Of a DNA stretch of 64,000 bases, positions 24,227-60,950 are shown in pieces. Under the pieces are notes generated by a model. That model searched no databases. It was not told where the DNA came from and saw nothing but the letters and a program-made list of their open reading frames with translations. Both the position numbers and the translations under genes were made by a program. The stretch is from Thermoleophilia bacterium. Lineage in GTDB: Bacteria > Actinomycetota > Thermoleophilia > RBG-16-64-13. Positions within the stretch are counted from its first letter, which is position 1. Every line of letters begins with the position of its first letter. Location: contig JAXGXJ010000005.1 of assembly GCA_040772905.1 (NCBI GenBank), forward strand, positions 70,149 to 134,148, given 5' to 3'.

Positions 24227-24228
24227 GG

Positions 24229-27361: not shown

Positions 27362-27365
27362 AAGA

Positions 27366-34208: not shown

Positions 34209-35100
34209 TCGTCAGATTCCTTCGCCGCCAGTCCCGGGATGGGCGCCAGAGCAGGTCCCAGCTTGAGGTAGTTCACCTTGACCCCATCATCCAGGTCCAG
34301 CTCGATACGCTCCTGGGCCAGCGGCAGGAGCACCTCCCTTTCATACTCCTCGCACTCGCGGATGGTCTTGCCGAGCGCGTCGGCTTCTTTGCGATACCGA
34401 GCCTTGTCATGAGGCGAGGTGGACTCGCTGGCCAGGAGGTGCTCCAGGTGCTCCAGGCGATAGTGCATCTTGGAGATGTACTCGCGCAGGTAGCGGTTGA
34501 GCACGCGGTTGGCCGTGTCGCGGGTGTAGCGGTGGAGGTAGACGAGGCACTGGAAGCCCTTCTTGGGACTCTGGAACATCCAGTAGATGGGCCGCTTCTT
34601 GTGAGTCTGGAGATGGTCCTTGTAGAAGTCGGTGGCAAAGTACTTGCGCAGGTCCTTGCCCAATGACTCCTCGATGAAGCGCAGGTTCTCATCCAGGGTC
34701 GAATCCCCAAACGTGACCCGCAGGAAGTTCCGCGTGCGAGCCACGATGTCATCCTCGAACCATTCTCCGCTTAAGACCGGGATGATGGCATCTTCATCGG
34801 GGACAAAGCTGAGCTCATCCAGGGGCCTCCCCACTCTTGCCAGGTAGCCCTCCAGAGTGTCGCCGGCATCGGCCAGGATGAGGCCGGGCTTATCCAGGGA
34901 GTAGCGGCCCATCATGCAACCCACGGCGTGGGAGAGGAATCCAGCGATGTCCTTACGTCTGTCGGGACGAGCCAGGGTGATCTCCTCTTCCGGGACCTCA
35001 GGAGTGAGCTCATCCTGAAGGCCATAGGCTTCGATCCACAGGCGGTTGTTCTCCGTCTCTAGCTGCTGCATACGGGCAATGTTGTCCCTGTCGTTGCCGA
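34205..35100 (-). pseudogene. pglX: BREX methyltransferase PglX, C-terminal fragment (gene split by IS21 insertion)
   Basis: Contains the PglX C-terminal signature KRPIYWMFQSPKKGFQCLVYLHRYTRDT. Overlaps the pglZ start by 4 bp. Upstream coding continuity is broken at the IS21 left IR (35101). Confidence 0.75.
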
Positions 35101-35199
35101 TGTGAAACTGACCCATTAGTGCCGGTCTGAAACTGACCCACCTTGAAATGACGTAGGCTTCTCGGTTGGTTCTCTTGGAATCTGCCGAGGAGGGGTCAG

Positions 35200-36192
35200 T
35201 TGATCAAACTGGAGGAATGGGTGGACATCGTTTCCCTTCATAGGCAGGGTCTTTCTATTCGCGCGATCGCTCGCAGACTGGGCGTCTCCCGCAACACGGT
35301 ACGAGCCGCGCTTCGTCGGCCGGGTCCGCCGACGAGAGCCCCACAACAGCGGCCGCCGTCCAAGCTGGATCCCTATCGGGACTATCTCCTGGCCCGGCTG
35401 GCCGAGTTCCCGGAACTGCCGGCGGAAGCGCTCTTCGAGGAGATCCAGGCTCTCGGCTATTCCGGCGGCCGCACCATCCTCAAGGAGTTCACCCGGCCTT
35501 ATCGCATCCGCAGGAAAGAGCCAGTGGTGCGCTTTGAGACCCCGCCCGGCCGCCAGGCCCAGTGTGACTGGGCTCACCTCGGCACTCACGTCATCCGCGG
35601 CGAGCTCACAGCGCTCTATCTCTTCGTGATGATCCTCGGCTTCTCCCGGGTCCTCTATGCCGAAGTGGTCACCCGCACCGACATCGACACGTTCCTGGAA
35701 CTCCACGTGCACGCCTTCCGCGCCTTCGGGGGCATGCCCGAGGAGATCCTCTATGACAACCAGAAGGTGGTGGTGCTCAGCCGCTCATCTGACGGCCCGG
35801 TCTTTCATCCCGCTCTTCTTGCCTTCGCTGGCCAGTTCGGCTTCAAGCCGCGCCTCTGCCGGCCCTATCGGGCCCGCACCAAGGGGAAGGTGGAGCGCTC
35901 CATCGGCTATATCCGGGACCGCTTCTTCTGTGGAAGGACGTTCATCGATATCCCCGATCTCAACCACCAGCTCGCGATGTGGCTTGAGACCGCCAACGCC
36001 CGGGAGCATAAGACCACCGGTGAACGGCCCTGTGATCGGCTGCTCAGGGAGAAGCTCCTGCCCTTCGCCGCCGCCCGGCCCTGGCGGGGTTCAGAGGCGC
36101 CGATCGTGCCTCCCCGGCGCCCCTCCTTCCGTTTCGCCTCTCCCGAGGTCGAGCGGCGTTCTCTCTCGGTCTATGAGGAGGTGTGCTCGTGA
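35200..36192 (+). CDS. istA: IS21-family transposase IstA
   Basis: 330 aa. N-terminal HTH (LSIRAIARRLGVSRNTVR), rve core (CDWAHLG...YDNQKVVV...KGKVERS). TTG start after GAGGAGGGG. Confidence 0.8.
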   Translation: MIKLEEWVDIVSLHRQGLSIRAIARRLGVSRNTVRAALRRPGPPTRAPQQRPPSKLDPYRDYLLARLAEFPELPAEALFEEIQALGYSGGRTILKEFTRPYRIRRKEPVVRFETPPGRQAQCDWAHLGTHVIRGELTALYLFVMILGFSRVLYAEVVTRTDIDTFLELHVHAFRAFGGMPEEILYDNQKVVVLSRSSDGPVFHPALLAFAGQFGFKPRLCRPYRARTKGKVERSIGYIRDRFFCGRTFIDIPDLNHQLAMWLETANAREHKTTGERPCDRLLREKLLPFAAARPWRGSEAPIVPPRRPSFRFASPEVERRSLSVYEEVCS

Positions 36193-36974
36193 ACCTGGAG
36201 ATGGAGCGCATCGCACTTCTCGCCGACCGGCTGCACCTGCCCCAGCTCACCGCCAGCCTGCCGCTTCTGGCCGAGGAGGCCGCCCGCAAAGAGCAGAGCT
36301 ACAGCGAGTTTCTGCTGGGGCTCTTGGAAGAGGAGGTCCGGGCCGCGGACGTCCGAGCCCAGGAGATGATGCTCAGGCTCGCGTCGTTCCCCTTCCGGCG
36401 CACCCTCGATGACTTCGACTTCTCCTTTCAGCCCTCGGTCAGCAAAAAGCAGCTCAGGGAGCTTGCGAGTTGCGCCTATGTGGAGCGGGCGGAGAACGTC
36501 ATCCTCCTCGGGCCGCCGGGCGTGGGCAAGACGCACCTGGCCGTCGCTCTCGGCCTCGCTGCCATCCACAAGCGCCTGCACGTGAAGTTCACCACCGTGG
36601 CCGCCATGGTCGCCAACCTCACCCAGGCGCTGAAGGCCGGCACCTATCCCGCCCGGCTTCGCACCTATCTTCGGCCCAGCGTCCTCATTCTTGATGAGAT
36701 CGGCTTTCTTCCTCTGGAAGCGGGGCAGGCCAGTCTGCTCTTCGAAGTCATCTCCCGCCGATACGAGCGCGGCTCCATCATCCTCACCTCGAACAAGAGC
36801 TATGCCGAATGGGCAGAGATCTTCTCCGGCGACGAGGTGATCGCCACAGCCATGCTCGACCGGCTCCTTCACCACGCGACCACCATCATCATCAAGGGCC
36901 AGAGCTACCGGCTCAAAGACAAACAGCGGGCCGGCCTGGTTGCTCGAAGAAAGGGGAACGAGGCAAGCGAATGA
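36183..36974 (+). CDS. istB: IS21-family helper ATPase IstB
   Basis: 263 aa. Walker A GPPGVGKTHLAVALG, Walker B LILDEIGF. Overlaps the istA stop. Confidence 0.85.
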   Translation: MLVNLEMERIALLADRLHLPQLTASLPLLAEEAARKEQSYSEFLLGLLEEEVRAADVRAQEMMLRLASFPFRRTLDDFDFSFQPSVSKKQLRELASCAYVERAENVILLGPPGVGKTHLAVALGLAAIHKRLHVKFTTVAAMVANLTQALKAGTYPARLRTYLRPSVLILDEIGFLPLEAGQASLLFEVISRRYERGSIILTSNKSYAEWAEIFSGDEVIATAMLDRLLHHATTIIIKGQSYRLKDKQRAGLVARRKGNEASE

Positions 36975-37055
36975 CGCAAAGGGGGTCAGATTTCGATCGG
37001 CACTGAACCTTAGGGTGGGTCAGTTTCAGACCGGCAGAAAAGGGTCAACTACACA

Positions 37056-39689
37056 CCGGCATTGACAGTCCCGGAGGTAGCGCTCCCATTTCTGCCACGA
37101 TGCTTCTAGCGTAGGCCCTTTGAGTTCGGGGCGCAGGAGAGGGAGGTCTTGGAAGTCCCAGGAGGTCTCGAAGTTATTCCAATCGGTGCGGGCGAGGGAG
37201 GTCAAGGAACGGGCGAGGGCCGAAGTCCCCTTGGCCACGTGGGCCAGGGGAATCTTCGCAACGTCTCCAGGTACGTAGTTCATTGTTGGAGCCAGAGCGC
37301 CCAGACAGGCTCGTGCCACGACGGAGTTGAGAACCAACAGGATCAGTTCAAGATTCTCCTCGCAGAACATTGACGAACCACCTGAACTGAAGAGAAAGCC
37401 AGGCGGCGTATGACGGAAACTCGCGGGCCCAGTCGTGACAGAGCTCCAAGTAATATTGGGTTTGAAGTAGTATTCCTCGCTCCGTATCTCCTTCGTGTAG
37501 CTTCCTCCGCCGTATCGGGCGACGATGAATGATTTCAGCTCTTTGCCATCATCTTTCCAGTTGATCAGCGTCTCGTTGAGCCCAAACCACCTTCGGTTGC
37601 CGCCGCCCTTGTTGAGAGGGAACCATTTTCCAGGGGACTCGCGGCTCATGTTGCGGCCGGCGACGCCGAATTCCGTGCTGCTCCATCCGACCTCAAACCA
37701 AAGTCGGACAAAGCTTGCGTCGTCCAGTGTAACTAGCCCTTTTCGCACGACAGCGGCACTCGCGAGGGGCGGGAATCCTTCAAAGGCAGCGACGAGCGCG
37801 GGACCGCACCAGTAGGCGACCGGACTCCCGGGAATCTTGTCCATGTCTCTGGCCGCAATATCAAACCGGAGGCCCCCTCCTGACGCGTTGGCCAACCTGA
37901 AGAGACCTTCTTTGGCTGCCTCGCTGTCGCCGTCGACCAAGCGGAAGTAGCGGCCGCGCCCGTTCCGCAAGGACCCTTTGAACGCGACGAACGCAGTCGC
38001 CTGGACTACCTCACCGCCAATAGTGTCGAACGCGCGTGGGCCCAGATGCGCCATGGTTACGATGAACTTCGACGAGAGCAACTGCCGTCGCAATGCTTCA
38101 TAGCTCGAGAGAAACATCCAGTTCTGCATAGTGATTAGGGCGAAATAGGCGTTATCACGAGCCAGAGTGGCGCATCGTTCGATGAACATGGCGAACAGGT
38201 CGGATTTCGAGTCGGGGAACCTCTCAGAACTGAAGCGGCGAACACAGTCGTTCATCGCCCCACCCCCCAGATACGGCGGGTTGGTAACCACCACGTGGTA
38301 GCGCTGGGTGAGCATCTCCGCTTGGGTGAGGGCGAGGAGAACCTTGCGCTGGGTCTCTGCAAGGAGGAGGTCAGCGGGAGCGGGAGCGTTCGCTATTTCG
38401 GTCTTGAGCTGGATGATCTCCGGCTCAGTGAGGATGGGCTGGACGAGCGAGCCGAAGGTGGAGGTGTTCTCCCGGAACTGATAGACCTGTTGGAGGACCT
38501 TAGCGGTGAAGAGACGGGTGAGGCCGCTTGAGCTGAGCCAGGCCTTGAGCTCCTCAGCCTCGAAGGGAACGTCTTCCAGGCACACGACTTGCGGTTGGAT
38601 CGCTCCCCGGAAGGCGTTTCTCGACTTCTCCCGAGCTTTGGCGAGGAGAGCGAACTGGGCGAGCTGGGTAGCCCGAGGGCAGATCTCCAGGCCATAGAGG
38701 TTGTGGGTGAGGATCTTTGTAGGGATATCGGCGGGGGCGTAGCCCTCCTCCTCATAGATCTGATAGAGAAGGTCGAAGGCGTAGGTGAGCATGTGCCCGG
38801 AGCCGCAGGCGGGGTCGAGAAGCCGGATGTCTTCTGGACGCTCAACGGTGAGGGAGTCAGCCGGAGCTTGCCCGTCCGGGTCTTCGACATAGTACGGCAT
38901 GGAGGCGCGAAGAGATGAGCGGGGACGGGAGCGAAGCCACAGCCGCCCCAGGGAGTTCTCGACGAGATAGCGCACGATCCAGTGCGGGGTGAAGAGCTGG
39001 GTGACGGCGGGGATGTCCTCGCTGGGGACGGCCGTCTTGCGGGCCATCACCTGGTCTTTCTTCTCGGAGATGTAGAACTGATAGAGCCAGCCGAGGATCT
39101 CCACCTCAGCGCAGTCCTCGTCAGTGATCTCGCTCCGGAAACCGTGGGCCACGGAGTGGTCGGTGAGGAGGTCATCGGGAAGAAGGAGTTCGGTCTCGTC
39201 ATCGAGGCGCTCAAAGAGAAGGGGCAAGAGCGCGTGGTAGTAGCGGCAGGCGGCGAGCACCAGGTGGCGATAGACCTCGCCCTGGGGATCGGACGAAGGC
39301 AGGCGGCCATCGAGAAGATCTCCGAGCCGAGCGGGATCGGTATAGGGCCTCAGCTGATCGGGGATAACCTCGGTCCGAACCAGACGCAGAATCTCAGGCT
39401 GGGTCTCGGAAGCCGAAGCGGGCGTGACGATCCGCACCCGGAAAGGGTGCCAGCCGCGGGCGTCTAGGAATCGCAGGGCCGCCAGGCGGTTGAACCAAGT
39501 GTAGGCGACTCGCTCGATGAGCTGAGAGCGGTTCTGTACGGACTGGGCCCGGAGGCGCTCCACCTGTGCCGACGCAGCCCGCAGATCGGGTGTGTCGGCA
39601 GTGAGGACGTAGTCAAGCTTGCGTTCGACGGCCTCCAGCAGGTCGCGGCGGGCCTGTTGGGCGAAGGGCTTGAGGGAGGAGGTATCCAT
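37056..39689 (-). pseudogene. pglX: BREX methyltransferase PglX, N-terminal ~870-aa fragment (split by IS21)
   Basis: N-terminal hallmark VAYTWFNRLAALRFLDARGW, then an N6-adenine methyltransferase core (VVTNPPYLGGG). The reading frame runs into the IS21 right IR and stops at 37026. Confidence 0.75.
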
Positions 39690-45192: not shown

Positions 45193-48018
45193 CTATGTGT
45201 CACACAGGAACCGTGCAAAGCACTCCCGGTCCTCGAGCAGGGCCATGATTCGCTCGCCGTCACCTGCCGCGAACGCTTCTTCCAGTCTGCGCTGGTAGCT
45301 GTCCCACCGGGGCACCCCCTTATCGTAGAGGTTGTACTCCGGCCCCGCCTCCGCCAATATCGAACTTACCCTGTTCATCGATCCGTGCATGGCGGTCCTC
45401 GCACTCGCCTCCCAGCGCAGTCTTGCTAGGAGCTCCTCCTTACACTTCTGAACCCTGCTTCTGACTCCCCTCGGTAGGCGGCACCCCTCGTAGGTGTGTC
45501 GCGTCAGTAGCTTGATCTCCTCCCCTCTTACTACCATACCGAACCCTGCGGAGTGGACCCTCGCCGTCACCTCACGTGCCGACTCACTCATCTCGGCGAT
45601 TGCTGGGCCACGACCAATCCCAAGCCCTCCACCATCCGTCCTCTCCGCCACGCCGCCACGTGTCGCCTCCGACGCCACTTCGGTAAGTGACGGAGCCGCC
45701 ACGGAGCCATCGGGTGTGGCGGGGGATCCCATGGCCTCCACCGTTTCGTCAGCGCACTGTGGCGGTGTGGCGGGGAGATAGCGGTCAAAGGCGTCCTCGA
45801 ACTGCTCGCGGAGGTAGCCCTTGTGATTGCAGTTCTCTCCCTCGCGGATGCTGCGAGGTCGGATCCCGAAGGGCTTGAGGAGCCGCGCCAGGCCAGCCGG
45901 ACTGAGCTCGCGCCCACGGCTCCATTCCGGCCACGGTCTTTCGTCCATTGCGTTTAGGGCGGCGAGGATCTCCTGCGTTGAAAGTCGATCGTGGGCTTCG
46001 AACAAGGTGCGTAGGTCTTCAAGCACCATGATGCCGGCTGTCTCCTCCTCGGCTGCGCCGCTCAGCAGGAGAGCCGAGTTCCGCGCCCGCTCTGGCCACG
46101 AGCCGCCTACGACCTCGGCGATAGCAAGAAGTGGGCGCCAGTTGTCTGCCAATCGATTGCCAAAGCCGGGTGGTATGTAGGGCTCATGCAGCCGCAGCAC
46201 CTCGAGGTGATCCAGGGCCCACCGCGCCATCTTTCGCCGCAGTGGCAAGAGCTCATCTAGCTGATGGAGGCGCAAGGGCATCACGTCCTCGCCCTGGGTT
46301 TTACGCTGAAGACGGACGTGGACGCTCCGGGAAGCCAGCGTTGCCGGCAACTTGCCGATCATGGCAATCGCCTTGGGAGCCCAGGTACTAAACCGGGCAG
46401 GCTCATGGTCTTCCCCTACGGTGCGAACGATGGACGCGGAGCGCCTCGCGTGGCCACAATTAAGTACCCCGCGGAGCTCGTCGTTGTCATTGAGGAACGT
46501 GTCCGCCTCATCGATGAGCAGAGTGGGGCTGTACCTGTCCATGGTCCGAAAGACAGCGGCGGCGGTGATATTGCTGGCCGGAAGGGCACGAGGGACCACC
46601 GCCCCCAAGAAGGTCATAGCGACTGTCTTGCCGCACTCGGGCGTCGGAGATGTGATTCCGAGGATGGGCGAGATGTCGGCCGCATCGTGCGCGTGAGCGT
46701 GGACGCACCATAACGCCATGCCTTCGGCCGCGCCGGGGGGAAGCCACACATGTCGGCGAATGACGGCGCACAGCTCGTTCAGCAGGTCTTCCCCGTCCAC
46801 CTCGTCTGGATAGGGCTCCGGTTCGTCTGGGAAGAGCTCTCCGCTGTGCGACCGACTGTGGCGACGAGCGCTGACCAGTTTGTCCAGCCGGGTGACCCTC
46901 ATCCCCAGTTCCTTGGCCGCCTGGATCCGTTCCCGCTCGTAGGCGGTCTCGCTCAGCGCTGCGAGCCGGGCCAACTCGGCCTCGAACCGGCCGCTGTCAT
47001 CCTGGCTCTGGTCGCTGCCACGTTCGTACTCGTCCCGGAGCTGTCGCCAGCCCCACGTACACGAGTCGTGGTGGCATCCGGCGCTCAACGCGCCGTTTGG
47101 CAGTTGCAGGATGAAGGCCTCCCCGCGGTTGTGATCCGAATTGAAGGGGCAGGTGGCCAGTTCGTACAGATCCCCACTCTCGTCGCGCTTCACCTTGCGC
47201 ACCTCAAGCCCATTACGCTCGATGAAGGCTTCCACGTCGAACCAGGGGCCCTCGGGGACACCGCCCGTGGAGCTGCCAAGGCCAAGCGCGAGCCCGGCCA
47301 CTTTTTCGAGGAGGGCATCCGAGACCGTCTCCAATTCCACCGGAGCGGAAAGGACACGTGAGCGTCGATGCGGTCGCTCGGCAAGGTTCTCCCCTTTACA
47401 CGCCATAGTCCCCGGTACCTTGACGATGCGAGCGGCGTTGTAGACGCCCGTGTCTACATGCAGGCCACCCTCGTCGAATCGAGCGGCCAGGGCAGTCAGC
47501 AACCGCTTCACCAGATCGCGGCCGGCTTCATCATTCGCGAGGTCGATACGATAGAACAGATGAGCGCCGTTCCCGCTCATGACAGCGGCGCCTTCCGGCC
47601 AGCCGCACTCGTCCTCGAGAAACAGCCGAATCCGCTGCGCGACGGCCAGGCAGGACTCGAGCTCTTCATCTGTGGCGGATGTCCCGGAAGGACGCTGATA
47701 GTCGACGTCAATGAGCAAAGCTCGACGGCGCAGGATGTCCCTGTCGGCGGAGGTGGTGTGGACCAGCTCCTCGAGGCGATTAAGAGCGCCTGCGTTTGCG
47801 GGCGGCCTCACCGGATTGAGGGTCAGGTAGATGCCGGGAACCCGCCCATCGTAAGAGGCTAGGGCAGCCGCGGCGGCCTCGGCATCGTCAAAGTAGCCGG
47901 AGACAGTTCCGCTGCGTCTTGCTCGGGGTATTCTGATTTCGAAGACTTCGCCGGGCCGGTGCAGCAGGGAGATCGCCTGCCGGGCGATCTGGGTATCGTA
48001 GCCGTTGTGACTCTCCAT
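45193..48018 (-). CDS. replication protein: bifunctional primase-polymerase (prim-pol) N-terminal domain fused to P-loop NTPase (DUF3987-like) domain
   Basis: 941 aa. N-terminal prim-pol pattern (ALLIDVDYQR ... GNGAHLFYRI). Central Walker A PTPECGKTVA and Walker B LLIDEAD. Confidence 0.7.
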   Translation of the reverse strand: MESHNGYDTQIARQAISLLHRPGEVFEIRIPRARRSGTVSGYFDDAEAAAAALASYDGRVPGIYLTLNPVRPPANAGALNRLEELVHTTSADRDILRRRALLIDVDYQRPSGTSATDEELESCLAVAQRIRLFLEDECGWPEGAAVMSGNGAHLFYRIDLANDEAGRDLVKRLLTALAARFDEGGLHVDTGVYNAARIVKVPGTMACKGENLAERPHRRSRVLSAPVELETVSDALLEKVAGLALGLGSSTGGVPEGPWFDVEAFIERNGLEVRKVKRDESGDLYELATCPFNSDHNRGEAFILQLPNGALSAGCHHDSCTWGWRQLRDEYERGSDQSQDDSGRFEAELARLAALSETAYERERIQAAKELGMRVTRLDKLVSARRHSRSHSGELFPDEPEPYPDEVDGEDLLNELCAVIRRHVWLPPGAAEGMALWCVHAHAHDAADISPILGITSPTPECGKTVAMTFLGAVVPRALPASNITAAAVFRTMDRYSPTLLIDEADTFLNDNDELRGVLNCGHARRSASIVRTVGEDHEPARFSTWAPKAIAMIGKLPATLASRSVHVRLQRKTQGEDVMPLRLHQLDELLPLRRKMARWALDHLEVLRLHEPYIPPGFGNRLADNWRPLLAIAEVVGGSWPERARNSALLLSGAAEEETAGIMVLEDLRTLFEAHDRLSTQEILAALNAMDERPWPEWSRGRELSPAGLARLLKPFGIRPRSIREGENCNHKGYLREQFEDAFDRYLPATPPQCADETVEAMGSPATPDGSVAAPSLTEVASEATRGGVAERTDGGGLGIGRGPAIAEMSESAREVTARVHSAGFGMVVRGEEIKLLTRHTYEGCRLPRGVRSRVQKCKEELLARLRWEASARTAMHGSMNRVSSILAEAGPEYNLYDKGVPRWDSYQRRLEEAFAAGDGERIMALLEDRECFARFLCDT

Positions 48019-48021
48019 GGC

Positions 48022-48267
48022 TCAGACTTCGTTCTCGACGCTACGGCCCTCGATCCTCTCGATCACCTGGCGCCGGGGGATGAAGTTGCACTTGCCCATC
48101 TTGAGCACAGGGATACCAAAGAGCGTCGAATACTGCCGCACCTCGGCGTACATGGAAGGCAGACCGGGGCCATGTGGCAGAGCCTGCTTGATTTCGCGGA
48201 CCGTTGTGAGCGGCCGGTTGTCCGCCTTGAACTGCTCCCATGCCGTCATGCGTACCATGTCAACCAA
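48022..48267 (-). CDS. excisionase / AlpA-like HTH DNA-binding protein
   Basis: 81 aa (LTTVREIKQAL...LFGIPVLKMGKCNFIPRRQVIERIEG) resembling HTH_17 Xis-type proteins. Located directly upstream of the prim-pol gene and divergent from the XRE-int pair. Confidence 0.5.
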   Translation of the reverse strand: MVDMVRMTAWEQFKADNRPLTTVREIKQALPHGPGLPSMYAEVRQYSTLFGIPVLKMGKCNFIPRRQVIERIEGRSVENEV

Positions 48268-48407
48268 CCTCCTATTTCACATCATAGTAAACAGTTTATC
48301 TAAACGATGACCTTGCGTCAAGTCTTGGCCTCATGGTTTAATGTATGCATGTCTGTGGCGCGCCGGGATCGGCCGCTGCAGTGGCGAGCTGCACGAATGG
48401 AGGTACG
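48268..48407. promoter_or_regulatory. divergent intergenic control region between xis-like gene and XRE regulator/integrase
   Basis: Locally AT-richer 140 bp (CATCATAGTAAACAGTTTATCTAAACGATGACCTTGCGTCAAG) separating the divergently oriented xis-like and XRE genes, as in a lysogeny-type switch. Confidence 0.4.
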
Positions 48408-48926
48408 GTGTCGAGCGAGGATGCCGCACGAGAAGACAAGGCAAGGTCAAAGCCTCGGCGCTCATCGAAGACATTCCGGGGGAACAAGCGCACGCCGGTT
48501 GAGGGAAAGCGCTTTCCCTCCGAGATCTTCGGGGACAATGTTCGGCTTTTGAGACACAGGCGCGAATTGCGCCAGCAGGATCTGGCTGAGTGGATGAATA
48601 ACCTCGGGTTCTCCGGCTGGTCCTACGTTACGGTGTCCGATGTTGAGCGGGGCATGCGGAGCACCAGCATCGATGAACTATTCGCGCTGGCGTTCGCGCT
48701 CAAGGCGCCGGTGGTCAAGCTGCTCGACCCCTGCTTCACCGGCAATCGGGGCCAAGACATCGACCTCGGCTTTGAGCATTTCGAACAATGGGCGCCCAGG
48801 GATCCGCGGGCGTTCATCGTGCCGAGCGGTGATCCATGGGCACTGGAGCAGGGTGATGTGACCTACGACCGGTATCGGAGCCAGTTCGAGCGACTCGTGG
48901 AAGACGCCGAGCAAGGTCTCCTGTGA
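48408..48926 (+). CDS. XRE-family (Cro/CI-type HTH) transcriptional regulator
   Basis: HTH FGDNVRLLRHRRELRQQDLAEWMNNLGFSGWSYVTVSDVERG. GTG at 48408 is preceded by GGAGG. Alternative upstream ATG at 48345. Confidence 0.6.
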   Translation: MSSEDAAREDKARSKPRRSSKTFRGNKRTPVEGKRFPSEIFGDNVRLLRHRRELRQQDLAEWMNNLGFSGWSYVTVSDVERGMRSTSIDELFALAFALKAPVVKLLDPCFTGNRGQDIDLGFEHFEQWAPRDPRAFIVPSGDPWALEQGDVTYDRYRSQFERLVEDAEQGLL

Positions 48927-50095
48927 GGGGCTCCCTTCGCAAACGGGGCGGTGGCTGGGAATGGCGGGCGCGCACACCCGACGGCCGCCATGTGAGCAAG
49001 GCAGGCTTCGAGACCCGAAAGGCGGCCCAAGAGGCGCTCACCAAAGCGCTGGCCGCCATGGCTGACCAGCGGTTCGTCCGTCCCGATCGGCTGACGGTCG
49101 AGGACTATCTCACCGACACCTGGCTCCCGGCCGCCAAGCCGACCGTGGCCTACACCAGCTATATCAACTATGCGAGCGTCATCGCCAACCACATCGTCCC
49201 GAATATAGGGGACATCCCTTTGCAGAAGCTCACGCCGGGCCACGTGAAGGCCATGTACGCCGAACTGTCTCAATCGGGGCACCGGGCCAGCACGAAGAAG
49301 AAGCCCAAAGGGCTCTCGCCCAAGAGCATCCGCAACGTGCACACCACACTGCATCGAGCCCTCAGCGACGCCGTCGAGTGGGGATACGTGGCCGGCAACG
49401 TGGCCAGCCGCGTGAAACCACCCAAGCTGAACGCCGAGCTTCACATGAAGGCGTGGACCGCCGCCCAGCTGCAGACCTTCCTCGCCCACACGAGCAAGGA
49501 CCGCTGGTATCCGCTGTGGCGCCTCCTTGCCCTGACCGGCATGCGCCGGGGTGAGGCCATGGGACTGCGCTGGTCGGATGTCGATCTCGAGGCCGCTCGC
49601 ATCTCCATAGTCCAAGCACGCAGCATCTGGGGGATCTCCTCCCCCAAGACGCCCCGCAGCCGCCGGTCTCTCGACCTGGATCCGGAGACGGTGGCCGTGC
49701 TTAGACGGTGGCGGCGCCAGCAGCTCGAGGAACGCATGCTCTGGGGAGAACTCTGGACTGACACCGGCCTGGTCTTCACACGCGAGGACGGCCGGGCCGG
49801 GCACAGCGACACCGTGACCGGCGTCTTCGTCCGTGAGCAGGCCCGGGTCAACAAGCAGCTGGCCGAGGAGGCCCTTAAGGCTGACACGGAACCAGTCCTC
49901 CTTCCCCAGATCCGGCTGCATGACCTCCGACACACCCACGCCACGCTGCTGCTCGCCAACGGCGTGAATGCCAAGGTCATCTCAGAACGGCTTGGCCATG
50001 CATCCGTCGCCTTCACGCTCACGACCTATGCCCATGTCCTTCCCGGACAGCAGATGGAGGCGGTCACACGCTTGGCCGCTGTCATCGACGGGTAG
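48923..50095 (+). CDS. int: tyrosine site-specific recombinase (phage-type integrase)
   Basis: 390 aa. C-terminal catalytic signature LHDLRHTHATLLLANGVNAKVISERLGHASVAFTLTTYAHV with the conserved R...HxxR...Y residues. N-terminal arm-binding-like domain. Confidence 0.9.
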   Translation: MRGSLRKRGGGWEWRARTPDGRHVSKAGFETRKAAQEALTKALAAMADQRFVRPDRLTVEDYLTDTWLPAAKPTVAYTSYINYASVIANHIVPNIGDIPLQKLTPGHVKAMYAELSQSGHRASTKKKPKGLSPKSIRNVHTTLHRALSDAVEWGYVAGNVASRVKPPKLNAELHMKAWTAAQLQTFLAHTSKDRWYPLWRLLALTGMRRGEAMGLRWSDVDLEAARISIVQARSIWGISSPKTPRSRRSLDLDPETVAVLRRWRRQQLEERMLWGELWTDTGLVFTREDGRAGHSDTVTGVFVREQARVNKQLAEEALKADTEPVLLPQIRLHDLRHTHATLLLANGVNAKVISERLGHASVAFTLTTYAHVLPGQQMEAVTRLAAVIDG

Positions 50096-53818: not shown

Positions 53819-54646
53819 CTAGCTGGGGCCAAGCAGCCCAGGGGCCACCTTAGCGACCCAGTGCGCGTGCAGCCTGCTCCATAGAGCCGAGTGACTTCCC
53901 AGCCGCCCGGCCTGCCGCGGATGTACCAGCGGCAGCAACTTCAGGGCGTGGCCGGCAATCTCCATGTCACGGGGCCGACCGTAAGTCTCCGGCGTCTCGC
54001 CGTACAAGCCGAGTGCTGGCTGAGACCCGTAATACTGGGCAAACCACTTGAGGGGCTGGTCTCCGAGTGTGACCAGTACATCCGGCGAAGCGGACAGAAT
54101 CTCGCCCTCAATCTCAAGTCGCCTCGCCGCCGAAGCCAGGATGGAGGGGACCGAGGGAAAGTCGTAGGCAGGAAGGCCGAGTGCCTCCCGCCGTGGGTCG
54201 TATTCCCGCTCGATGGCCGCCCGCTGACGGGGGTTGCAGCGACTCTCCGGGAGAAGGTCGCAAAGCCAAGCATCGCTGCGGGTGACGCCGAGCGGTTCAA
54301 GGAACAGCGAATCCAGGGTCACCCCAGACGGGCCGTTCAGCGTCTTACTCGCGGGTATCAAGCGTCCCGCTCCGGGCGGCATTGGTATCTGCTTGATGAG
54401 CGCGTCGCCATCGTCACCGCGCCAGAAGATCTCGGGCTCAGAGGCAACCGCGAGAGCGTTGATGATCGTCTTGCCGTCCTCAGAAACCCAACGAGCATGC
54501 ACAGCACTTGCATACACGCCGAGGACGAAGATGCGCTTGGGATTAATGTCGGCCTGTCGGACCGGCACAATCGGCATGCCGAATGGGTAGGTGTACACGT
54601 GTGACCTCTCCGTCCGTCGAGTATCTAGGCGTTTCTCGACAGCCAT
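53819..54646 (-). CDS. hypothetical protein
   Basis: 275 aa from the internal ATG of track ORF 53819..54700. No confident domain; distant resemblance to the HPxxxxR motif of uracil-DNA-glycosylase-superfamily proteins (LPLVHPRQAGR). Confidence 0.35.
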   Translation of the reverse strand: MAVEKRLDTRRTERSHVYTYPFGMPIVPVRQADINPKRIFVLGVYASAVHARWVSEDGKTIINALAVASEPEIFWRGDDGDALIKQIPMPPGAGRLIPASKTLNGPSGVTLDSLFLEPLGVTRSDAWLCDLLPESRCNPRQRAAIEREYDPRREALGLPAYDFPSVPSILASAARRLEIEGEILSASPDVLVTLGDQPLKWFAQYYGSQPALGLYGETPETYGRPRDMEIAGHALKLLPLVHPRQAGRLGSHSALWSRLHAHWVAKVAPGLLGPS

Positions 54647-54984
54647 GCTTGAGGATCCTCGGGCCCCAGAATGGTCACGCCGAAGTGCTCTCTGAGCCAC
54701 GCGCTGGTCATGGGGTAGATGAGCATCAGTCGTACCGGACTGTGTGACAAGGAGCGAGCCAAGATGAACGCCCCGTTACGTTCTATCGTCTCCAGCTCAT
54801 ATACCTTGTCGCGGACACCCTCGGGGTAGTTGGCCTGGTAGAAGGCCAGTGAGAACTTGCGTCCACCTTTCGGTGCGATCTCTTCGACCCGTGCCGGCGA
54901 ATAGGACCGCATCTCCGTCCCGAATTCTTCCCCAAGCAGTTCCATTGCGTACCAGTGTCCGGGTTCTAGCGATAGTCTGTCCAT
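54625..54984 (-). CDS. hypothetical protein
   Basis: 119-aa ORF in the same orientation as its neighbours, overlapping the next gene start. No recognisable motif. Confidence 0.3.
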   Translation of the reverse strand: MDRLSLEPGHWYAMELLGEEFGTEMRSYSPARVEEIAPKGGRKFSLAFYQANYPEGVRDKVYELETIERNGAFILARSLSHSPVRLMLIYPMTSAWLREHFGVTILGPEDPQAWLSRNA

Positions 54985-55033
54985 GGTTCCGCCTGCCGTC
55001 GATGCGTGTCAGCAGACCCCGAGCGCTTGCATC

Positions 55034-55678
55034 TCAGTCTGCATCTCGGTCTTCCTCGCGGCGTTCCGCAGGACGCGCTTGTTGGTTCGCTTCATCCCGT
55101 CTTCCAACGTGGAGATCAACGTCCACGACGTGTTCTTCAGAAAACCGGAATGCCTTTGGGACGAGAGATTGATCCCGTTCGAGCACGGCTTCAACCAGGG
55201 TCGCGAGGTCGTTCCGACGCTCCTTCGGAAGTGCAGCGAGCCGTTTATCCTCGTCCATCTGATGACGAATCCGCTTGCGAGTCTCCCGGGCATGCAGGCC
55301 TTGTTCCAAGTTGTCGTAAGCCTTCGTTAGCGACTCAACTGCAGGCGGAAGGTACTTTAGACACAACCAGACGATCGAGATCAGCGGCACGTTTTGGAGG
55401 ATTTCAGGGATGACAAGCTCGACCGACCCGGGGCGGACCCGTTCAACGCGAAGATACTCAGTCGGTCGCATTGCGTAGGATCGGAAGCCGCTGGGTTGCA
55501 GCCGCCCGTAGATGTGGTCAATGAGCTGAAGGTACGCAGCCATGTCGCGAAGCGGAAGATCGCAGCAGTCGGTGCGAACTATCAGTTCAAGGCGGTCACC
55601 TTCCCGTGCCCCCGGGACAAGCAACGACTGGAGTTCCCTCAGAGCGATGACTGGCATTCGCACCACAAGGTCGCGCAT
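55034..55678 (-). CDS. hypothetical protein
   Basis: ~214 aa from the internal ATG of track ORF 55034..55729. No recognisable motif. Confidence 0.35.
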   Translation of the reverse strand: MRDLVVRMPVIALRELQSLLVPGAREGDRLELIVRTDCCDLPLRDMAAYLQLIDHIYGRLQPSGFRSYAMRPTEYLRVERVRPGSVELVIPEILQNVPLISIVWLCLKYLPPAVESLTKAYDNLEQGLHARETRKRIRHQMDEDKRLAALPKERRNDLATLVEAVLERDQSLVPKAFRFSEEHVVDVDLHVGRRDEANQQARPAERREEDRDAD

Positions 55679-55754
55679 GAATCTCCCCTTCGTCGAGCTA
55701 ACGTGTGAGCGCAACAGTGGCGCGCCCACCCCCTGCAGTTCACTCTAGCGCTTA

Positions 55755-56465
55755 TCAGACCCGCTGTTGCGGTACCAGTTCATACAGCAGATACTCCGGA
55801 GACAGGGAATCCCAGCGAGTCACGGATATCAGCAGAAGCCTCATGCACTCCGGCGAACTTCCGGACTTCAGCCGGAAGTTCGTCTGCTGGAGCATCACGT
55901 CAAGCCTATCCGGAAACTCGGCCTTCATCCGGCGAACGTGCTCGAAGCTGTTGGTCGGGTCGCTGCCGTCTTCCGCCTGGAGAGAGCCGGTTGGCACCCC
56001 CGCCAACTCCACCAGGAGCGGGGCCGGAGACACATCAAGGAGCTGGAACAACCTACGGTGTCGTCTGTACAGACTGTCCGTGACAGCTGGGACGCCCTTG
56101 TCGACTAGTACCTGAAGAAGATCCAATGTGTAGGTGAGCAATTCTGAACCGTAGCGCTTGTTCACGGCATATCGCACTGCGGTCCCGGGAGACGGCGACA
56201 CGTACGTTTGCCCATGCTGGAAGTTCCGTGAGCCAGCCCGCTGCTGAATCATTAACTCAAAAGAGTGGCGCCTACGCTTGTATATGGCATGGTCCGCCGC
56301 GTGCTCATCGAGCAAGGGCTGAATATCTCGGGCGAGATCCAACACTCCCAGCTCCTCGAGAGGATCCTTCGCTCCCAGACCGAGCCGGCGGATATCCTCA
56401 AGGAACAAGGTCGAAGTGCCGTGATACAGCGGCAAGTCGAACACTTCGCCAGCGGTCTGGGCCAT
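55755..56465 (-). CDS. hypothetical protein with ADP-ribosyltransferase/Tpt1-like H-G-T ... Y-x10-Y motif pair
   Basis: From the internal ATG (MAQTAGEVFDLPLYHGTSTLF...GQTYVSPSPGTAVRYAV). The LYHGT and Y-x10-Y motifs match the first two signature motifs of H-Y-E-class ART/Tpt1 folds. A catalytic Glu was not identified. Confidence 0.35.
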   Translation of the reverse strand: MAQTAGEVFDLPLYHGTSTLFLEDIRRLGLGAKDPLEELGVLDLARDIQPLLDEHAADHAIYKRRRHSFELMIQQRAGSRNFQHGQTYVSPSPGTAVRYAVNKRYGSELLTYTLDLLQVLVDKGVPAVTDSLYRRHRRLFQLLDVSPAPLLVELAGVPTGSLQAEDGSDPTNSFEHVRRMKAEFPDRLDVMLQQTNFRLKSGSSPECMRLLLISVTRWDSLSPEYLLYELVPQQRV

Positions 56466-56544
56466 CGAGATAGATCCCCCTTCGCCGGTGTGCCTTGCGT
56501 GTTTCGGCTTCAATGTGGGCGCAGCGCGCCAAGTGGAAGCCGGG

Positions 56545-57129
56545 TTAGGCACCTACTTGTTTGATCCAGTCCCGTATGTTCACACCGAGGCGCTCGATGT
56601 CGGGCTTCGACAAGGTGCCGCTGTGCATGATCACGTTTCGCGATCTCTCCACGACGTCAAACAGGCTTTGAACCCACTCGATGGACGGAATGTAGGGTTC
56701 AAAGAGCGTGTCGTTCTTGCGAATGATGCTCACTAGATCGCCGAATTCCGTGTAGTTCAGCGGGTCGTCGCCACGCGGAGTATGCCAACGGTTCTTCTGC
56801 TCATCGTCCCGGCGACCCTCTGCGCGCTTGCGCACATGCTCACTGGTGCCTTGCGTCCACCAGTTTTCACCGAACTCCGCAATGAGCGCATCCTTCACCA
56901 AGTCCCGGGCGGAGTTCTCGAAAGCCGCCACGGCCGTGTATACGGCCGCCATCTGTTTCGCCTCTGCCACCAAGTCGTCGTCAAGAAGCTCGATGGACAA
57001 CGTCGCCGCGATATCGGCGTCGAAGAATCCCTGAACGCACGGTCTGGGACGGCCGGCGCGATCAAGGGACTCTTCAGACAGAAGCCCCTTGAAGACGAAC
57101 TCGTAGATGTCGCCCAATCGGCCGCTCAC
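56545..57129 (-). CDS. Swt1-like HEPN-domain protein
   Basis: 194 aa with C-terminal ...EWVQSLFDVVERSRNVIMHSGTLS (R-x4-H). Its start overlaps the stop of the upstream gene (ATGA). Confidence 0.5.
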   Translation of the reverse strand: MSGRLGDIYEFVFKGLLSEESLDRAGRPRPCVQGFFDADIAATLSIELLDDDLVAEAKQMAAVYTAVAAFENSARDLVKDALIAEFGENWWTQGTSEHVRKRAEGRRDDEQKNRWHTPRGDDPLNYTEFGDLVSIIRKNDTLFEPYIPSIEWVQSLFDVVERSRNVIMHSGTLSKPDIERLGVNIRDWIKQVGA

Positions 57130-57746
57130 CTAAGATGGGTTCGCAGGCTTGCGAATATCGCATCGTAAACTGCTGGGTCACGAGACTCAGGCAGGACAAT
57201 CTGGATATTGTAGACCAGGCCATCAAGCACCAGTTCTGGTGGTGCTGTTGGCTCAATCGTTACGCTTCCCGATCCGGTCCTGACCTCCGGGACTGGCGTC
57301 TGATGAGTCTTCGGGGCCGAGGATTTGAAGTCAGCGTGTTTTGCCAGAGCCAGGAAAGTCATCGCCATCTTGTCCACAACCGAATCCGATAGCTTGCCTT
57401 CGCCCAGAGTCTTGAGCTTATTCATCACATCCTGTTTGGTCATGGTATGCGCGCTCTTGTTCACTCTGAACAAGTCTGCATAGGCTTCACGCACTCCGTC
57501 CGCCAGTACTCGGGCGGACTGAGACTGATCGAGGTACTCGAAGTAGCGTTTCGTGGGCCGACCAGCGTCATCCAGGAAGCCCAGGGACTTGAGTACGTTG
57601 ATGATGAGTCGGTCGTTGCTGCTGGTGAACCCGAGATCCTCAAGGTACTTCTGCGTGAACTTGTCTGGAGCCTGTGCGTTGCGCATGGCTGCCAGGATGC
57701 CGTCGAGGTTCTTCTGGGTGGTCAAGTACGCTGTTGGCAGTGCCAT
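57126..57746 (-). CDS. DUF5343-like protein
   Basis: Starts MALPTAYLTTQKNLDGILAAMRNAQAPDKFTQKYLEDLGF..., which I recall as the DUF5343 N-terminal pattern. First gene of an overlapping four-gene operon. Confidence 0.45.
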   Translation of the reverse strand: MALPTAYLTTQKNLDGILAAMRNAQAPDKFTQKYLEDLGFTSSNDRLIINVLKSLGFLDDAGRPTKRYFEYLDQSQSARVLADGVREAYADLFRVNKSAHTMTKQDVMNKLKTLGEGKLSDSVVDKMAMTFLALAKHADFKSSAPKTHQTPVPEVRTGSGSVTIEPTAPPELVLDGLVYNIQIVLPESRDPAVYDAIFASLRTHLR

Positions 57747-58031
57747 TCGATCCCCCCTATCGACACGAACGCTCGTGGTCAAGGGACCCTCCATTGAGCC
57801 CCCCAGAAGTGTATCTCACCCATCTGATATCACTGGCTAGTACACAGTGTGTGGCAAGCACCCCAGAATGGAGCACAGTCGTTGGGCTCTGGCCGGACAG
57901 TGGAACGACAGGCGATGGAGACGGTTCTCCTCCGTGAACTTGCGGCCGAGCTGTATCGCGCAAACAAGAGGGACTCGTCCGTCCAACGTTGGGCACATAA
58001 CCCTCGCCTCATCACTGTAGCGTCTGCCAGC

Positions 58032-59072
58032 TCACGTCGCGCCCATTGTCTGAAGCTTCTGTAGGAAGTGCGAGAAGTCGCGCAACGTTTCCAAGTCCTC
58101 ATCTGGTATGCCGTCTGGATCGAAGTGCATGACGTCATTCCGAATCTCCCGGACCCTGTCCAACTGCGTGATGACAATTTTGCGATCGATTGCGAGGCCG
58201 AGTTTGGCCCACCTTTCAGAGTTCTGGAGCAAGCGGATGTACTCACCGAATGTCAGATCCGCGACGCTCTCGACGATACGGTCTGGATCGTCTGGGTCGC
58301 GTGCTGCTTGAAGCTCCGCTGTTCCGAACCGCTCACCGATAAGCCGCCTGACATGGTTCTCGATCTCTCCGAGAAGCAGGAAGGGTTCGGTCAGTTGACG
58401 GAACTGTAGACTCAGATCGCTAGACGTCACAATCCCACTAATTACCCGATCGGCGCCTCGCACAAGTACATGGTCGTGCTCGGCGATGACGTTGATGACA
58501 TCGAACAGTGAGGCAGTCGCGTACACTTCGACGTGCGAGTCCATGAAGTCCCGCACGGGCCCAATCGGCTTCGCCAGCGCCAGCCGCGTTCCTATTCCTG
58601 AGAGAGTGATCATGCCCTTCACATCACGCTCATTGGTCATGACTGGCAACTGCGAGAAGTCATTCGTCAGCATCTTGGTCAGAGCCGTCTCTAGCAAATC
58701 GTCAGGCTTCACAGATTCCGGCGTATGATTAGCGGCCTGCAGCTTGGAGACGCGGTATGTCGGATCTTGGTAGGTGTCATGTAACGAGGGGCCTTCCTCC
58801 GGAGCTCCCTCCTCCTGCGGCGGCTCCGGTTCGCTTGCATGGCTGGCGAGCTTGAATACAATGGGTGAATCGATGTATGCGGATTCGAAGTCAGGCTCGG
58901 TGACCAACCCATATGTGGTCAGGCCCTTGCGCAACGCATAGACGATCCAGTAGCCTCTACGCTTGGCATCAATCCACGAGAGGAACTCACGGATCGTGGG
59001 CGCCGGAGATGGCTCTCCCTTGCGCAGGTCGATAGCAATCTGCTCAAGACGCTCATGGAAATCCTCGTGCAT
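58032..59072 (-). CDS. CBS-pair plus C-terminal Swt1-like HEPN domain protein
   Basis: 346 aa. Two CBS-like repeats (LTKMLTNDFSQLPVMTNERDVKGMITLSGI; VRDFMDSHVEVYATASLFDVINVIAEHDHVLVRGADRVISGIVTSSDL). C-terminal LDRVREIRNDVMHFDPDG carries R-x4-H. Confidence 0.55.
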   Translation of the reverse strand: MHEDFHERLEQIAIDLRKGEPSPAPTIREFLSWIDAKRRGYWIVYALRKGLTTYGLVTEPDFESAYIDSPIVFKLASHASEPEPPQEEGAPEEGPSLHDTYQDPTYRVSKLQAANHTPESVKPDDLLETALTKMLTNDFSQLPVMTNERDVKGMITLSGIGTRLALAKPIGPVRDFMDSHVEVYATASLFDVINVIAEHDHVLVRGADRVISGIVTSSDLSLQFRQLTEPFLLLGEIENHVRRLIGERFGTAELQAARDPDDPDRIVESVADLTFGEYIRLLQNSERWAKLGLAIDRKIVITQLDRVREIRNDVMHFDPDGIPDEDLETLRDFSHFLQKLQTMGAT

Positions 59073-59381
59073 GACACCCCCTCGTGTCCGTCTAACGTCT
59101 CAGCGCTTCGGCCTAGCGCTTTGTCCATGGTATCGGACAATGCGGCCAGTCAGCTGCACGGGCTAGTTAGACGGCGCCCGAGAAGGTTACGGGCTCGACC
59201 CAGAGCAGATAAGCCTCCCACACTCCCCAGCAGAGCCAACGCAATCTTCGGCGACGGTCGATTCACGGCGCGATTGCATACCCCTCTCGCAGGCCGTCAG
59301 GGTCCGTGGGCTAGTCCGGTCCAAGGGTTAGGTGACAATGGACGCAGACGCGGATGGGCGGACGCGCACAGCGCGCATCGG

Positions 59382-59412
59382 CACGTGGGCACGTGGGCAG
59401 CGTGTGGGCAAG
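59382..59412 (+). repeat. three tandem ACGTGGGCAG-like motifs, candidate integrase arm-type sites (right end of island)
   Basis: CACGTGGGC ACGTGGGCAG CGTGTGGGCAAG, 68-98 bp from the tRNA-derived core. Confidence 0.45.
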
Positions 59413-59440
59413 ACCTGGAAGAGAGCGTTTGGAAGATTGC

Positions 59441-59476
59441 TTCCCAAAAGTAAAGCCCCGCTTGTGACGGGGCTTT
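59441..59476 (-). terminator. rho-independent terminator immediately downstream of tRNA-fMet (island-borne copy)
   Basis: On the minus strand: AAAGCCCCGtcacaagCGGGGCTTT + TACTTTTGGG. It has the same architecture as 27324-27361 but a different stem sequence (compensatory changes). Confidence 0.6.
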
Positions 59477-59479
59477 AGA

Positions 59480-59556
<77 letters not shown>

Positions 59557-59768
59557 CCGCTTGGAGACGGGAGTATAACACACCTGTGGACGCACAGCGC
59601 CAAGATCAGTCCAAAGTCCAACCCACAGCCATCGCACCAGGCGGCCCGGACCGCTACAATCGACCGGACAGGTAGCGGACTCTCCACACAGTGTCTATTG
59701 AGGTATTCCGGTGATCCTGCCGATACATATGTGGAGTCCGCGTTCAGGAAGGATCGAATAGGGAGCAG

Positions 59769-60950
59769 ATGATCCGTCGCACGCTGAAATGGTCCGTCTC
59801 CGCAGGGCTGGTGACACTGGCCTTTGTCTTGACGGCGGCGGTCCTCATCTTCGCCGGACCGGCCCACGCTACTCCTCTGGCGGATGCCACCACCAGTACC
59901 ACCACCCCCCTCGTCCTGCAGGGGGAGGCGCTCGACCGGGTCAACGGCCTCATCGGTCAGGCGACCGACGTCCAGTCCCAGATAGATGCGCTCGACGTCG
60001 AGCTGGAGAGGCGGACTGAAGCGTACAACGAACTGGCCGTCAAGCTCGACCGCACCAACTCGCAGCTCACCGAACTCCGACGCCGGCTCACCCAAGCGCA
60101 AGCCGATTATGCGCGTCACGTGGAGAAGCTTGAAGAGCGCATCCGCGGTGTCTACAAGTCCGGCGGCCGGGACACCCTGCTGCCCATGCTCTTCCTGGCC
60201 GACGGGCTCGAAGATCTCTATAACCGCATCGTGCTCATCTCGCAGCTGGCTGAGCAGGACACTCAGCTGGTCGAGGGGCTGCATAAGAGCAAGAGCGAGC
60301 TCGACGGTCTCCTGCTGGACATAGAGGCACAAAAACAGGCCCAGCTCAGCCTACGCCGCGAACAACAACGCGAGCGAGAGCAGATCCAGACACAACTGCT
60401 TGAGCGCAAGGCCATGCTCAGCAGCATCGATACCCAGGTGGCACAGGTCCTGGCCCACGAGCGGCAGCGACAGGCTCAGGAGGAGGAGCAGGTCCGCCTG
60501 GCCATGCTCGCCCTGCTCGGTGGCAGCCATGACTACACGGGGCCGCTGCCTCGTAACGGCGATATGGTCATCGATCAGCTCATCGAGACGGCGGCGTTCT
60601 ATCAGGGTGTGCCTTACGTGTGGGCCGGAGACCGGCCCTCCACCGGGTTCGACTGCTCCGGCTTCACCCAGTTCATCTTCGCCCAACACGGCGTGCAACT
60701 GCCCCATTACTCCGGCTACCAAGCTCAGATGGGTCTGCCTGTCAACCTGCCCGACCTGCAGGCCGGCGACCTCCTCTGCTTCGGATCGCCCGTACATCAC
60801 GTAGGCATCTACATCGGTGACGGCCTGTTCATCCACGCTCCCCGTACCGGCGACGTGGTGAGGATCCAACCATTGGCCGAGCGCACCAATCTCAGCGAGA
60901 TCCGCCGCTTTCAGCTTCAGTTCAGAGTCGGAGCGCCGTTAGTCCGCTAA
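59769..60950 (+). CDS. NlpC/P60 family peptidoglycan endopeptidase with N-terminal coiled coil (RipA-like)
   Basis: Signal peptide, long coiled-coil region, and a C-terminal C40 peptidase core (YVWAGDRPSTGFDCSGFTQFIF ... H ... H). Confidence 0.85.
   Translation: MIRRTLKWSVSAGLVTLAFVLTAAVLIFAGPAHATPLADATTSTTTPLVLQGEALDRVNGLIGQATDVQSQIDALDVELERRTEAYNELAVKLDRTNSQLTELRRRLTQAQADYARHVEKLEERIRGVYKSGGRDTLLPMLFLADGLEDLYNRIVLISQLAEQDTQLVEGLHKSKSELDGLLLDIEAQKQAQLSLRREQQREREQIQTQLLERKAMLSSIDTQVAQVLAHERQRQAQEEEQVRLAMLALLGGSHDYTGPLPRNGDMVIDQLIETAAFYQGVPYVWAGDRPSTGFDCSGFTQFIFAQHGVQLPHYSGYQAQMGLPVNLPDLQAGDLLCFGSPVHHVGIYIGDGLFIHAPRTGDVVRIQPLAERTNLSEIRRFQLQFRVGAPLVR

Follow-up and report, generated by a model that had tools for sequence, protein, structure and literature searches.

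In a 64,000-nucleotide stretch of a Thermoleophilia bacterium genome (positions 70,149 to 134,148 of contig JAXGXJ010000005.1, assembly GCA_040772905.1; hereafter the window), a minus-strand gene at 58032–59072 encodes a 346-aa protein with a CBS pair and a C-terminal HEPN-like domain. We conclude that this gene is very probably a member of DS-11, a single-protein anti-phage defense system that joins a CBS pair to a HEPN domain. The protein matched the NCBIfam equivalog model NF053863.1 (‘DS11_antiphage, CBS domain-containing anti-phage protein’) with 376.3 bits (E = 9.5e-113; curated cut-off, 260 bits), over residues 28–337 and the whole of the profile (positions 1–305 of 305). In BLASTP, residues 7–344 aligned with residues 7–363 of the validated E. 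coli protein WP_000257686.1 (45% identity, E = 4e-108, 98% of the length), the sole large gap falling in a linker. Through this alignment, the residues tested in E. coli, R330, H335 and Y157, correspond to R311, H316 and F139 of the window protein. PADLOC 2.0, which has no DS-11 model because its library is older than the system, returned no match for the 346-aa protein.

DS-11 is a product of the DefensePredictor study (DeWeirdt et al., bioRxiv January 2025; Science 2026; PMC13092281). The E. coli CBS–HEPN protein defends as one cloned gene, and its defense is abolished by Y157A in the CBS pair and by R330A/H335A in the HEPN domain (PMC13092281). The authors’ HHpred search of the E. coli protein found HEPN_Swt1 (PF18731) at aa 252–359 with a probability of 0.98, and their AlphaFold3 prediction was a dimer with two ATP (interface predicted template modeling score, ipTM, 0.59 for the dimer and 0.88 for ATP; PMC13092281). 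A 2013 survey had already listed CBS–HEPN fusions within the Swt1-like family and predicted that nucleotide sensing controls RNA stability (PMC3710099). Our finding is not new: the architecture dates from that survey, naming and validation of the system followed in 2025/2026, and the protein already carries the label of a curated NCBI model. A sequence-only reading of the window had proposed a stand-alone, nucleotide-regulated CBS plus R-x4-H HEPN RNase at an island edge; this agrees with published DS-11, down to the Swt1 label, which is also that of the published HHpred annotation, and the window protein both passes NF053863 and keeps the tested residues, with an aromatic at the Y157 position. 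What that reading overlooked is that the family had been named and tested before, that the protein has a third, N-terminal domain, and that the ‘operon above’ the gene is an unrelated candidate system, PDC-M34.

The open reading frame (ORF) is present exactly as first read, as a single gene, with an ATG start and a Shine-Dalgarno-like GAGGGGG 4 nt 5′ of it. In a family alignment of 47 homologs (52–68% identity), from which we also built a profile, the N-terminus of the window protein is in register with the starts of its homologs. The third-position GC of the gene (0.68) resembles that of adjacent island genes and lies under the 0.7–0.85 of most of the window. Scans for promoters and terminators near the gene gave no promoter, and no terminator in the 237-bp gap that separates it from its neighbor. 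From N to C, the protein consists of an N-terminal domain (N-domain), a linker, the CBS pair and the HEPN domain. An AlphaFold2 model built on the family alignment was confident (mean predicted local distance difference test, pLDDT, 88.7; predicted template modeling score, pTM, 0.70).

The C-terminal domain (aa 226–346; 58035–58397, minus strand) is all-helical in this model and includes a helix bearing E236-I-E-N239-H..R242. The R-x4-H motif, R311-N-D-V-M-H316 (codons at 58125–58142, minus strand; E. coli R330..H335 by alignment), sits at the end of helix 297–314, in keeping with the R-x4-6-H pattern of HEPN domains. It forms the core of the best-conserved block of the DS-11 family, I/V-R311-N-D-V-M-H316-F-D-P-D: R311, N312, D313, V314, H316 and the F-D-P-D that follows are invariant in the 47 homologs, and M315 is nearly so.

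The CBS pair, or Bateman module (about aa 104–225; 58398–58763, minus strand), was detected by Pfam as two CBS repeats at E = 6.4e-14. Position 139 (codon at 58656–58658, minus strand; E. coli Y157 by BLASTP residue mapping) is always aromatic, with F in 39 of the 47 homologs and Y in the other 8. In CBS–nucleotide complexes, ribose is bound by a motif of the form G-h-h-T/S-x-x-D. The CBS2 motif of the window protein, G213-I-V-T216-S-S-D219, has this ribose-binding form as judged by its residue pattern, and its T216 and D219 are invariant among the homologs. Four basic residues of the pair, R149, K152, R163 and R205, are invariant or nearly so; speculatively, they would suit a phosphate-rich ligand. 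Searches of PDB sequences with the family profile (hmmsearch) and with phmmer matched CBS proteins alone, and no solved DS-11 structure was among them.

Bateman modules dimerize and bind adenosine derivatives. We propose that two DS-11 protomers would pair via their CBS modules, and that an adenine-containing nucleotide would occupy the CBS cleft with its adenine stacked on F139. Nucleotide occupancy would set or stabilize the arrangement of the two HEPN domains, of the Abi2/Swt1 branch, which would jointly form a composite Rx4H active site (R311-x4-H316); HEPN RNases act as dimers that share a composite Rx4-6H site (Anantharaman et al., 2013; PMC3710099). On phage infection, DS-11 would then cleave RNA and so halt phage multiplication, and the infected cell would probably be sacrificed. 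Simple models in which ATP keeps the enzyme off are weakly disfavored, because Y157A was defense-null and not toxic.

The family membership, domain architecture, residue conservation, solo organization and island position of the window protein are established, as are, for the E. coli ortholog, defense and the need for R330, H335 and Y157. Several points weigh against the fuller scheme. RNase activity, gating by dimerization, the nature of the ligand, an abortive outcome and activity in a host of 62% GC are what we infer for the window protein, and RNase activity, ligand and RNA target are predictions for every DS-11 protein, including that of E. coli. Phenylalanine replaces Y157 in the window protein, which would forfeit any contact made through the hydroxyl, and the loss of defense in Y157A could reflect misfolding and not lost ligand sensing. 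Many DS-11 homologs lie among housekeeping genes and not in obvious defense islands. Pfam gave no HEPN match for the window protein, whether whole (E ≤ 1) or as the isolated C-terminal domain (E ≤ 10), and the PF18731 gathering score (27.5 bits) was not reached. A Foldseek search of the C-terminal domain model against the PDB gave nothing significant, and hhalign against the neighboring Swt1-HEPN family of PDC-M34 gave only E = 0.01 and a probability of 4%.

In that alignment of 103 columns, nevertheless, the first-helix E-N-x-x-R and the R-N-x3-H of the two families fell in register. HEPN_Swt1 was matched weakly by 16 of 29 homologous C-terminal domains (best E = 0.0041) and was the commonest Pfam family there; another HEPN family, DUF4145, was matched by five more. 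Taken together, these weak family matches, the hhalign register, the published HHpred result and the R330A/H335A phenotype make the HEPN assignment sound. Its ‘Swt1-like’ sub-family label is still a matter of remote homology.

The N-domain (aa 1–78; 58839–59072, minus strand; pLDDT 85–96) has a helix-helix-helix-strand-strand order in the AlphaFold2 model, resembling a winged helix, and is followed by an acidic, proline-rich disordered linker (about aa 79–100; 58773–58838, minus strand; pLDDT < 50 at residues 83–98) whose length and sequence vary among DS-11 homologs. The N-domain matched no Pfam family and no PDB sequence, and it is not annotated in the DS-11 paper, so that here the analysis goes past the published description. 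A profile search of 1.84 billion representative proteins found it in 1296. Among the best 150 of these matches, nearly all of the full-length ones had the order N-domain, CBS, HEPN; about twenty carried two tandem N-domains ahead of CBS–HEPN, and in two a tandem pair was fused to other modules, a PLD-like MIT_C (P0265) and TerB (P0370). Conversely, a short CBS–HEPN form that matches only residues ~88–345 and lacks the N-domain occurs in Geobacteraceae/Desulfuromonadales (L039, L045, L050, L051, L069 and L076, at about 8000–8760). Given the tandem copies, the MIT_C and TerB fusions and the Geobacteraceae form, the N-domain looks like a portable module, with a possible role in sensing or targeting.

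The N-domain might then be the infection sensor, for instance by binding phage nucleic acid or protein, and the CBS pair a mere nucleotide-dependent switch for dimerization or licensing. The conserved R38, R39 and T58-P-D-F62 (R38, R39, T58, P60, D61 and F62 are among the invariant residues of the domain), the tandem copies and the fusion to varied C-terminal modules are compatible with such a role, which we regard as unlikely but worth keeping in view. If true, it would make the N-domain a new kind of portable sensor or adaptor, and the short Geobacter form a non-immune ancestor or derivative. That form has kept its neighbors (in 4 loci the next gene downstream encodes a PPK2 polyphosphate kinase, and in 3 the upstream side carries an MlaA-like gene) and may be a non-mobile, possibly non-immune relative tied to nucleotide or polyphosphate metabolism.

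The distribution of the family bears on whether DS-11 serves defense at all. We scanned for relatives with one genome per species and examined the neighbors of the best 80 of 300 loci. These 80 loci span Acidobacteriota, Alpha-, Beta- and Gammaproteobacteria, Bacteroidota, Cyanobacteria, Chloroflexota, Planctomycetota, Verrucomicrobiota, Gemmatimonadota, Bacillota and one metagenome-assembled genome (MAG) of Halobacteriota. GTDB representative genomes held no DS-11 more than 66% identical to the window protein, and 50,697 phage records held none that was phage-borne. A plasmid collection yielded three full-length matches, one of which is actually an E. coli chromosome: NZ_CP141089.1 is listed in that collection despite being a chromosome of 4.9 Mb. 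It is the KE47 chromosome that encodes the validated WP_000257686.1 (3333490–3334587; L086), directly after a 200-aa truncated tyrosine recombinase and within a variable region bounded by tRNA-Ile/ypjA and sgrR-like genes. In a Terriglobia MAG, the DS-11 homolog directly follows brxL.

On a housekeeping or stress-response account, the CBS pair would read the energy or nucleotide state of the cell (ATP/AMP, diadenosine tetraphosphate (Ap4A), cyclic di-AMP or S-adenosylmethionine) and the HEPN domain would adjust RNA stability. The 2013 HEPN survey proposed such a role for CBS(+HD)-HEPN proteins (PMC3710099), many DS-11 homologs adjoin housekeeping genes, those for ThiC, adenylosuccinate synthetase and gyrase A among them, and polyphosphate kinase 2 is a conserved neighbor of the short Geobacter form, which lacks the N-domain. 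Against this, the E. coli ortholog protects from phage in a manner that needs both CBS and HEPN residues (PMC13092281), and the window protein passes the equivalog model of the defense family. The window gene, moreover, is cargo of a tRNA-borne island full of defense genes, and the patchy spread of the family over phyla, with no conserved synteny, is typical of mobile defense genes. We consider a housekeeping role improbable for the window protein.

The genes next to DS-11 raised the question of a larger system. The PDC-M34 pair (56545–57794, minus strand) consists of a DUF5343 gene (PDC-M34A; 57126–57794) and a Swt1-family HEPN gene (PDC-M34B; 56545–57129) that overlap by 4 bp; PADLOC matched PDC-M34B and PDC-M34A at E = 3e-74 and 6e-78, respectively. 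Two further ORFs of 265 and 231 aa (55034–56552, minus strand), which match no family, follow with an 8-bp overlap with PDC-M34B and then a 25-bp gap. DS-11 might work with PDC-M34, and perhaps with these two ORFs, as one multi-gene system with two HEPN proteins: all five genes are on the same strand, the 237-bp gap holds no convincing terminator, and the two R-N-x3-H HEPN domains align motif to motif. This arrangement is very improbable. Homologs of PDC-M34A, PDC-M34B and the two ORFs were found within 8 kb in 0 of the 80 DS-11 loci. The contigs with the closest relatives of PDC-M34B (94% and 89% identity) keep the upstream DUF5343 gene and have HEPN_AbiU2 or an unknown gene, not DS-11, in the DS-11 slot. 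In E. coli, one cloned DS-11 gene suffices for defense (PMC13092281), and the overlap within PDC-M34 contrasts with the 237 bp that set DS-11 apart. A functional link between DS-11 and PDC-M34 is thus largely refuted by their lack of co-occurrence.

The PDC-M34 family itself has more than 2000 relatives, whose upstream slot holds varied HEPN genes (HEPN_AbiU2 in L081); the 265- and 231-aa ORFs are missing from the close relatives, which carry a DUF7000 gene or nothing in that place. The 98 immediate neighbors of DS-11 at 49 of the 80 loci fell into 111 Pfam families, and no gene cluster was shared between loci, save among those of the short Geobacter form and in a single other pair (L015/L019). 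Because of the 0/80 co-occurrence, the lack of shared neighbors and the PDC-M34 relatives without DS-11, we take DS-11 to be an independent single-gene module and a chance neighbor of PDC-M34 in one insertion hot spot. The sequence-only reading was right in calling the gene stand-alone, in that no conserved partner gene appeared in the loci examined; it also placed correctly both the 237-bp gap, the next same-strand gene ending at 57794, and the island boundary about 400 bp away.

More improbable again is a ligand-responsive transcription factor of the CcpN type, with a winged-helix N-domain, a CBS sensor and a C-terminal domain for oligomerization only. The order of helices and strands in the N-domain and its invariant arginines could be read in this way, some JGI records call relatives ‘predicted transcriptional regulator’, and a threshold-level HEPN match is missing in both Pfam and Foldseek. 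Yet the best-conserved block of the family is not in the N-domain, which matches no known helix-turn-helix family, but is the C-terminal I/V-R-N-D-V-M-H-F-D-P-D with its invariant R, N, D, V and H, and mutating that R or H kills defense in the E. coli ortholog (PMC13092281). An AbiF-like type III toxin–antitoxin, in which a small RNA encoded by adjacent repeats restrains the HEPN toxin, has next to no probability and was rejected, as the flanks show only a run of three 8-nt GGCACGTG units and a tRNA, no tandem-repeat array and, apart from the tRNA, no Rfam RNA (hence no Rfam antitoxin) was found in 57600–59600 or 54500–60000, and the CBS pair gives a different, protein-borne regulatory input.

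DS-11 is the outermost cargo gene of an integrative defense island of ~32 kb at tRNA-Met. The tRNA-Met(CAT) gene (59480–59556, minus strand), the only tRNA in the window, is followed by a terminator hairpin (59451–59477). The tRNA-proximal copy of an 88-nt direct repeat (59439–59524; attR in the terms of the sequence-only reading) comprises the 3′ 45 nt of tRNA-Met, this hairpin and 12 nt; the distal copy (27323–27410) comprises a partial tRNA-Met 3′ end and a variant terminator hairpin. The two copies share 48 exactly identical nucleotides (27363–27410 and 59477–59524) and delimit the ~32-kb island. No third copy of at least 13 nt was found. The distance from the DS-11 start codon is 366 bp to the repeat and 407 bp to the 3′ end of the tRNA; GC is 0.57–0.59 over 55–59 kb compared with about 0.62 elsewhere in the window. 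Within the repeat copies (27323–27365 and 59439–59479), the hairpin stems differ with pairing kept, CCCTGCAGATTTGCAGGG vs. CCCCGCTTGTGACGGGG, as expected if one copy derives from the element while the chromosome’s original terminator provides the other. The three tandem copies of GGCACGTG (8-nt unit with CACGTG palindromes; 59380–59404) lie just to the island side of the att repeat, about 310 bp upstream from where DS-11 starts; they could be a binding site for a recombinase or regulator, or chance.

The recombination and replication module lies mid-island and not beside an att site, with cargo on both sides. This core (45193–50095) holds a DUF3631 protein, an 81-aa ORF, an HTH_31 protein and a tyrosine integrase (48923–50095). 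Besides DS-11 and PDC-M34, the cargo includes a Zn-ribbon protein, an Mrr-type endonuclease, T5orf172 and UDG-like proteins, the two unknown ORFs and a type 1 bacteriophage exclusion (BREX) system (brxL, pglZ, pglX, brxC, brxB and brxA). An IS21-family element (istA/istB at 35200–36974; 55-nt terminal inverted repeats at 35088–35142 and 37014–37068) interrupts the BREX methyltransferase gene pglX and splits it into an 887-aa N-terminal part (37026–39689) and a 303-aa remainder (34205–35116), and the island BREX is probably inactive because of this split. Just outside the distal island end is a transposase cluster (22427–27222) with an IS3-type rve, a Mu-transposase C-terminal fragment, DDE_Tnp_1 and HTH_32 + rve, which marks the distal side of the tRNA-Met site as rich in insertions. 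The locus also offers an example of a tRNA-Met defense island where a BREX disrupted by IS21 has two unrelated HEPN systems of the Swt1 branch beside it. As a discovery, the window DS-11 matters little, and the remaining novelty (the N-terminal module, the ligand and the RNA target) concerns the whole DS-11 family and is not specific to this locus. It has some practical value as a divergent, high-GC ortholog whose structure is modeled with confidence and whose island setting is clear, suited to biochemistry of the ligand, the RNA target and the N-domain.

Among known systems, the closest is E. coli DS-11 itself. Both proteins have the order N-domain, linker, CBS pair, HEPN, carry the R-N-D-V-M-H-F-D-P-D-G catalytic block and an aromatic residue at the Y157 position, and are encoded by one gene in an integrase-associated variable region. 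The window protein is 19 residues shorter, all within the disordered linker, has F, a conservative substitution and the majority state of the family, where the E. coli protein has Y at the predicted adenine-stacking position, and comes from a non-enterobacterial genome of 62% GC.

Other relatives share parts of this design. The CBS(+HD)-HEPN fusions (alr3009; gi 118580987 of Pelobacter propionicus; Anantharaman et al., 2013), which we compared by description, likewise combine a CBS sensor with a catalytically competent HEPN of the Swt1/Abi2 branch, and the same logic is predicted for them, a nucleotide ligand controlling RNA cleavage. The alr3009-type fusions may have an HD phosphohydrolase and are discussed as signaling RNases, not as defense; the window protein lacks the HD domain and carries an extra N-domain. 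PDC-M34B, like DS-11, has an R-N-x3-H HEPN of the same branch, and hhalign aligns the first-helix E/N..R and the RN..MH of the two; their pairwise similarity is undetectable (BLASTP E = 1.4), and PDC-M34B has no CBS pair, always accompanies DUF5343 and is not found with DS-11 at other loci. The abortive-infection HEPN AbiF/AbiD (Abi2; PDB 8vz6) was the best full-length structural match of the C-terminal domain, though not a significant one in Foldseek, and is a phage-defense RNase of the Abi2/Swt1 clade, as predicted for DS-11. AbiF is under the control of a cognate non-coding RNA, whereas the DS-11 locus has no RNA repeat locus and control would presumably come via the fused CBS pair. Finally, the CARF/SAVED-HEPN effectors (Csm6/Csx1) embody the design proposed for DS-11, in which antiviral defense relies on a HEPN RNase dimer gated by a dimeric nucleotide sensor. 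In Csm6/Csx1, the sensor is a Rossmann-like CARF domain and the ligand is a cyclic oligoadenylate made by a Cas10 partner; in DS-11, which has no partner synthase, the sensor is a CBS Bateman module.
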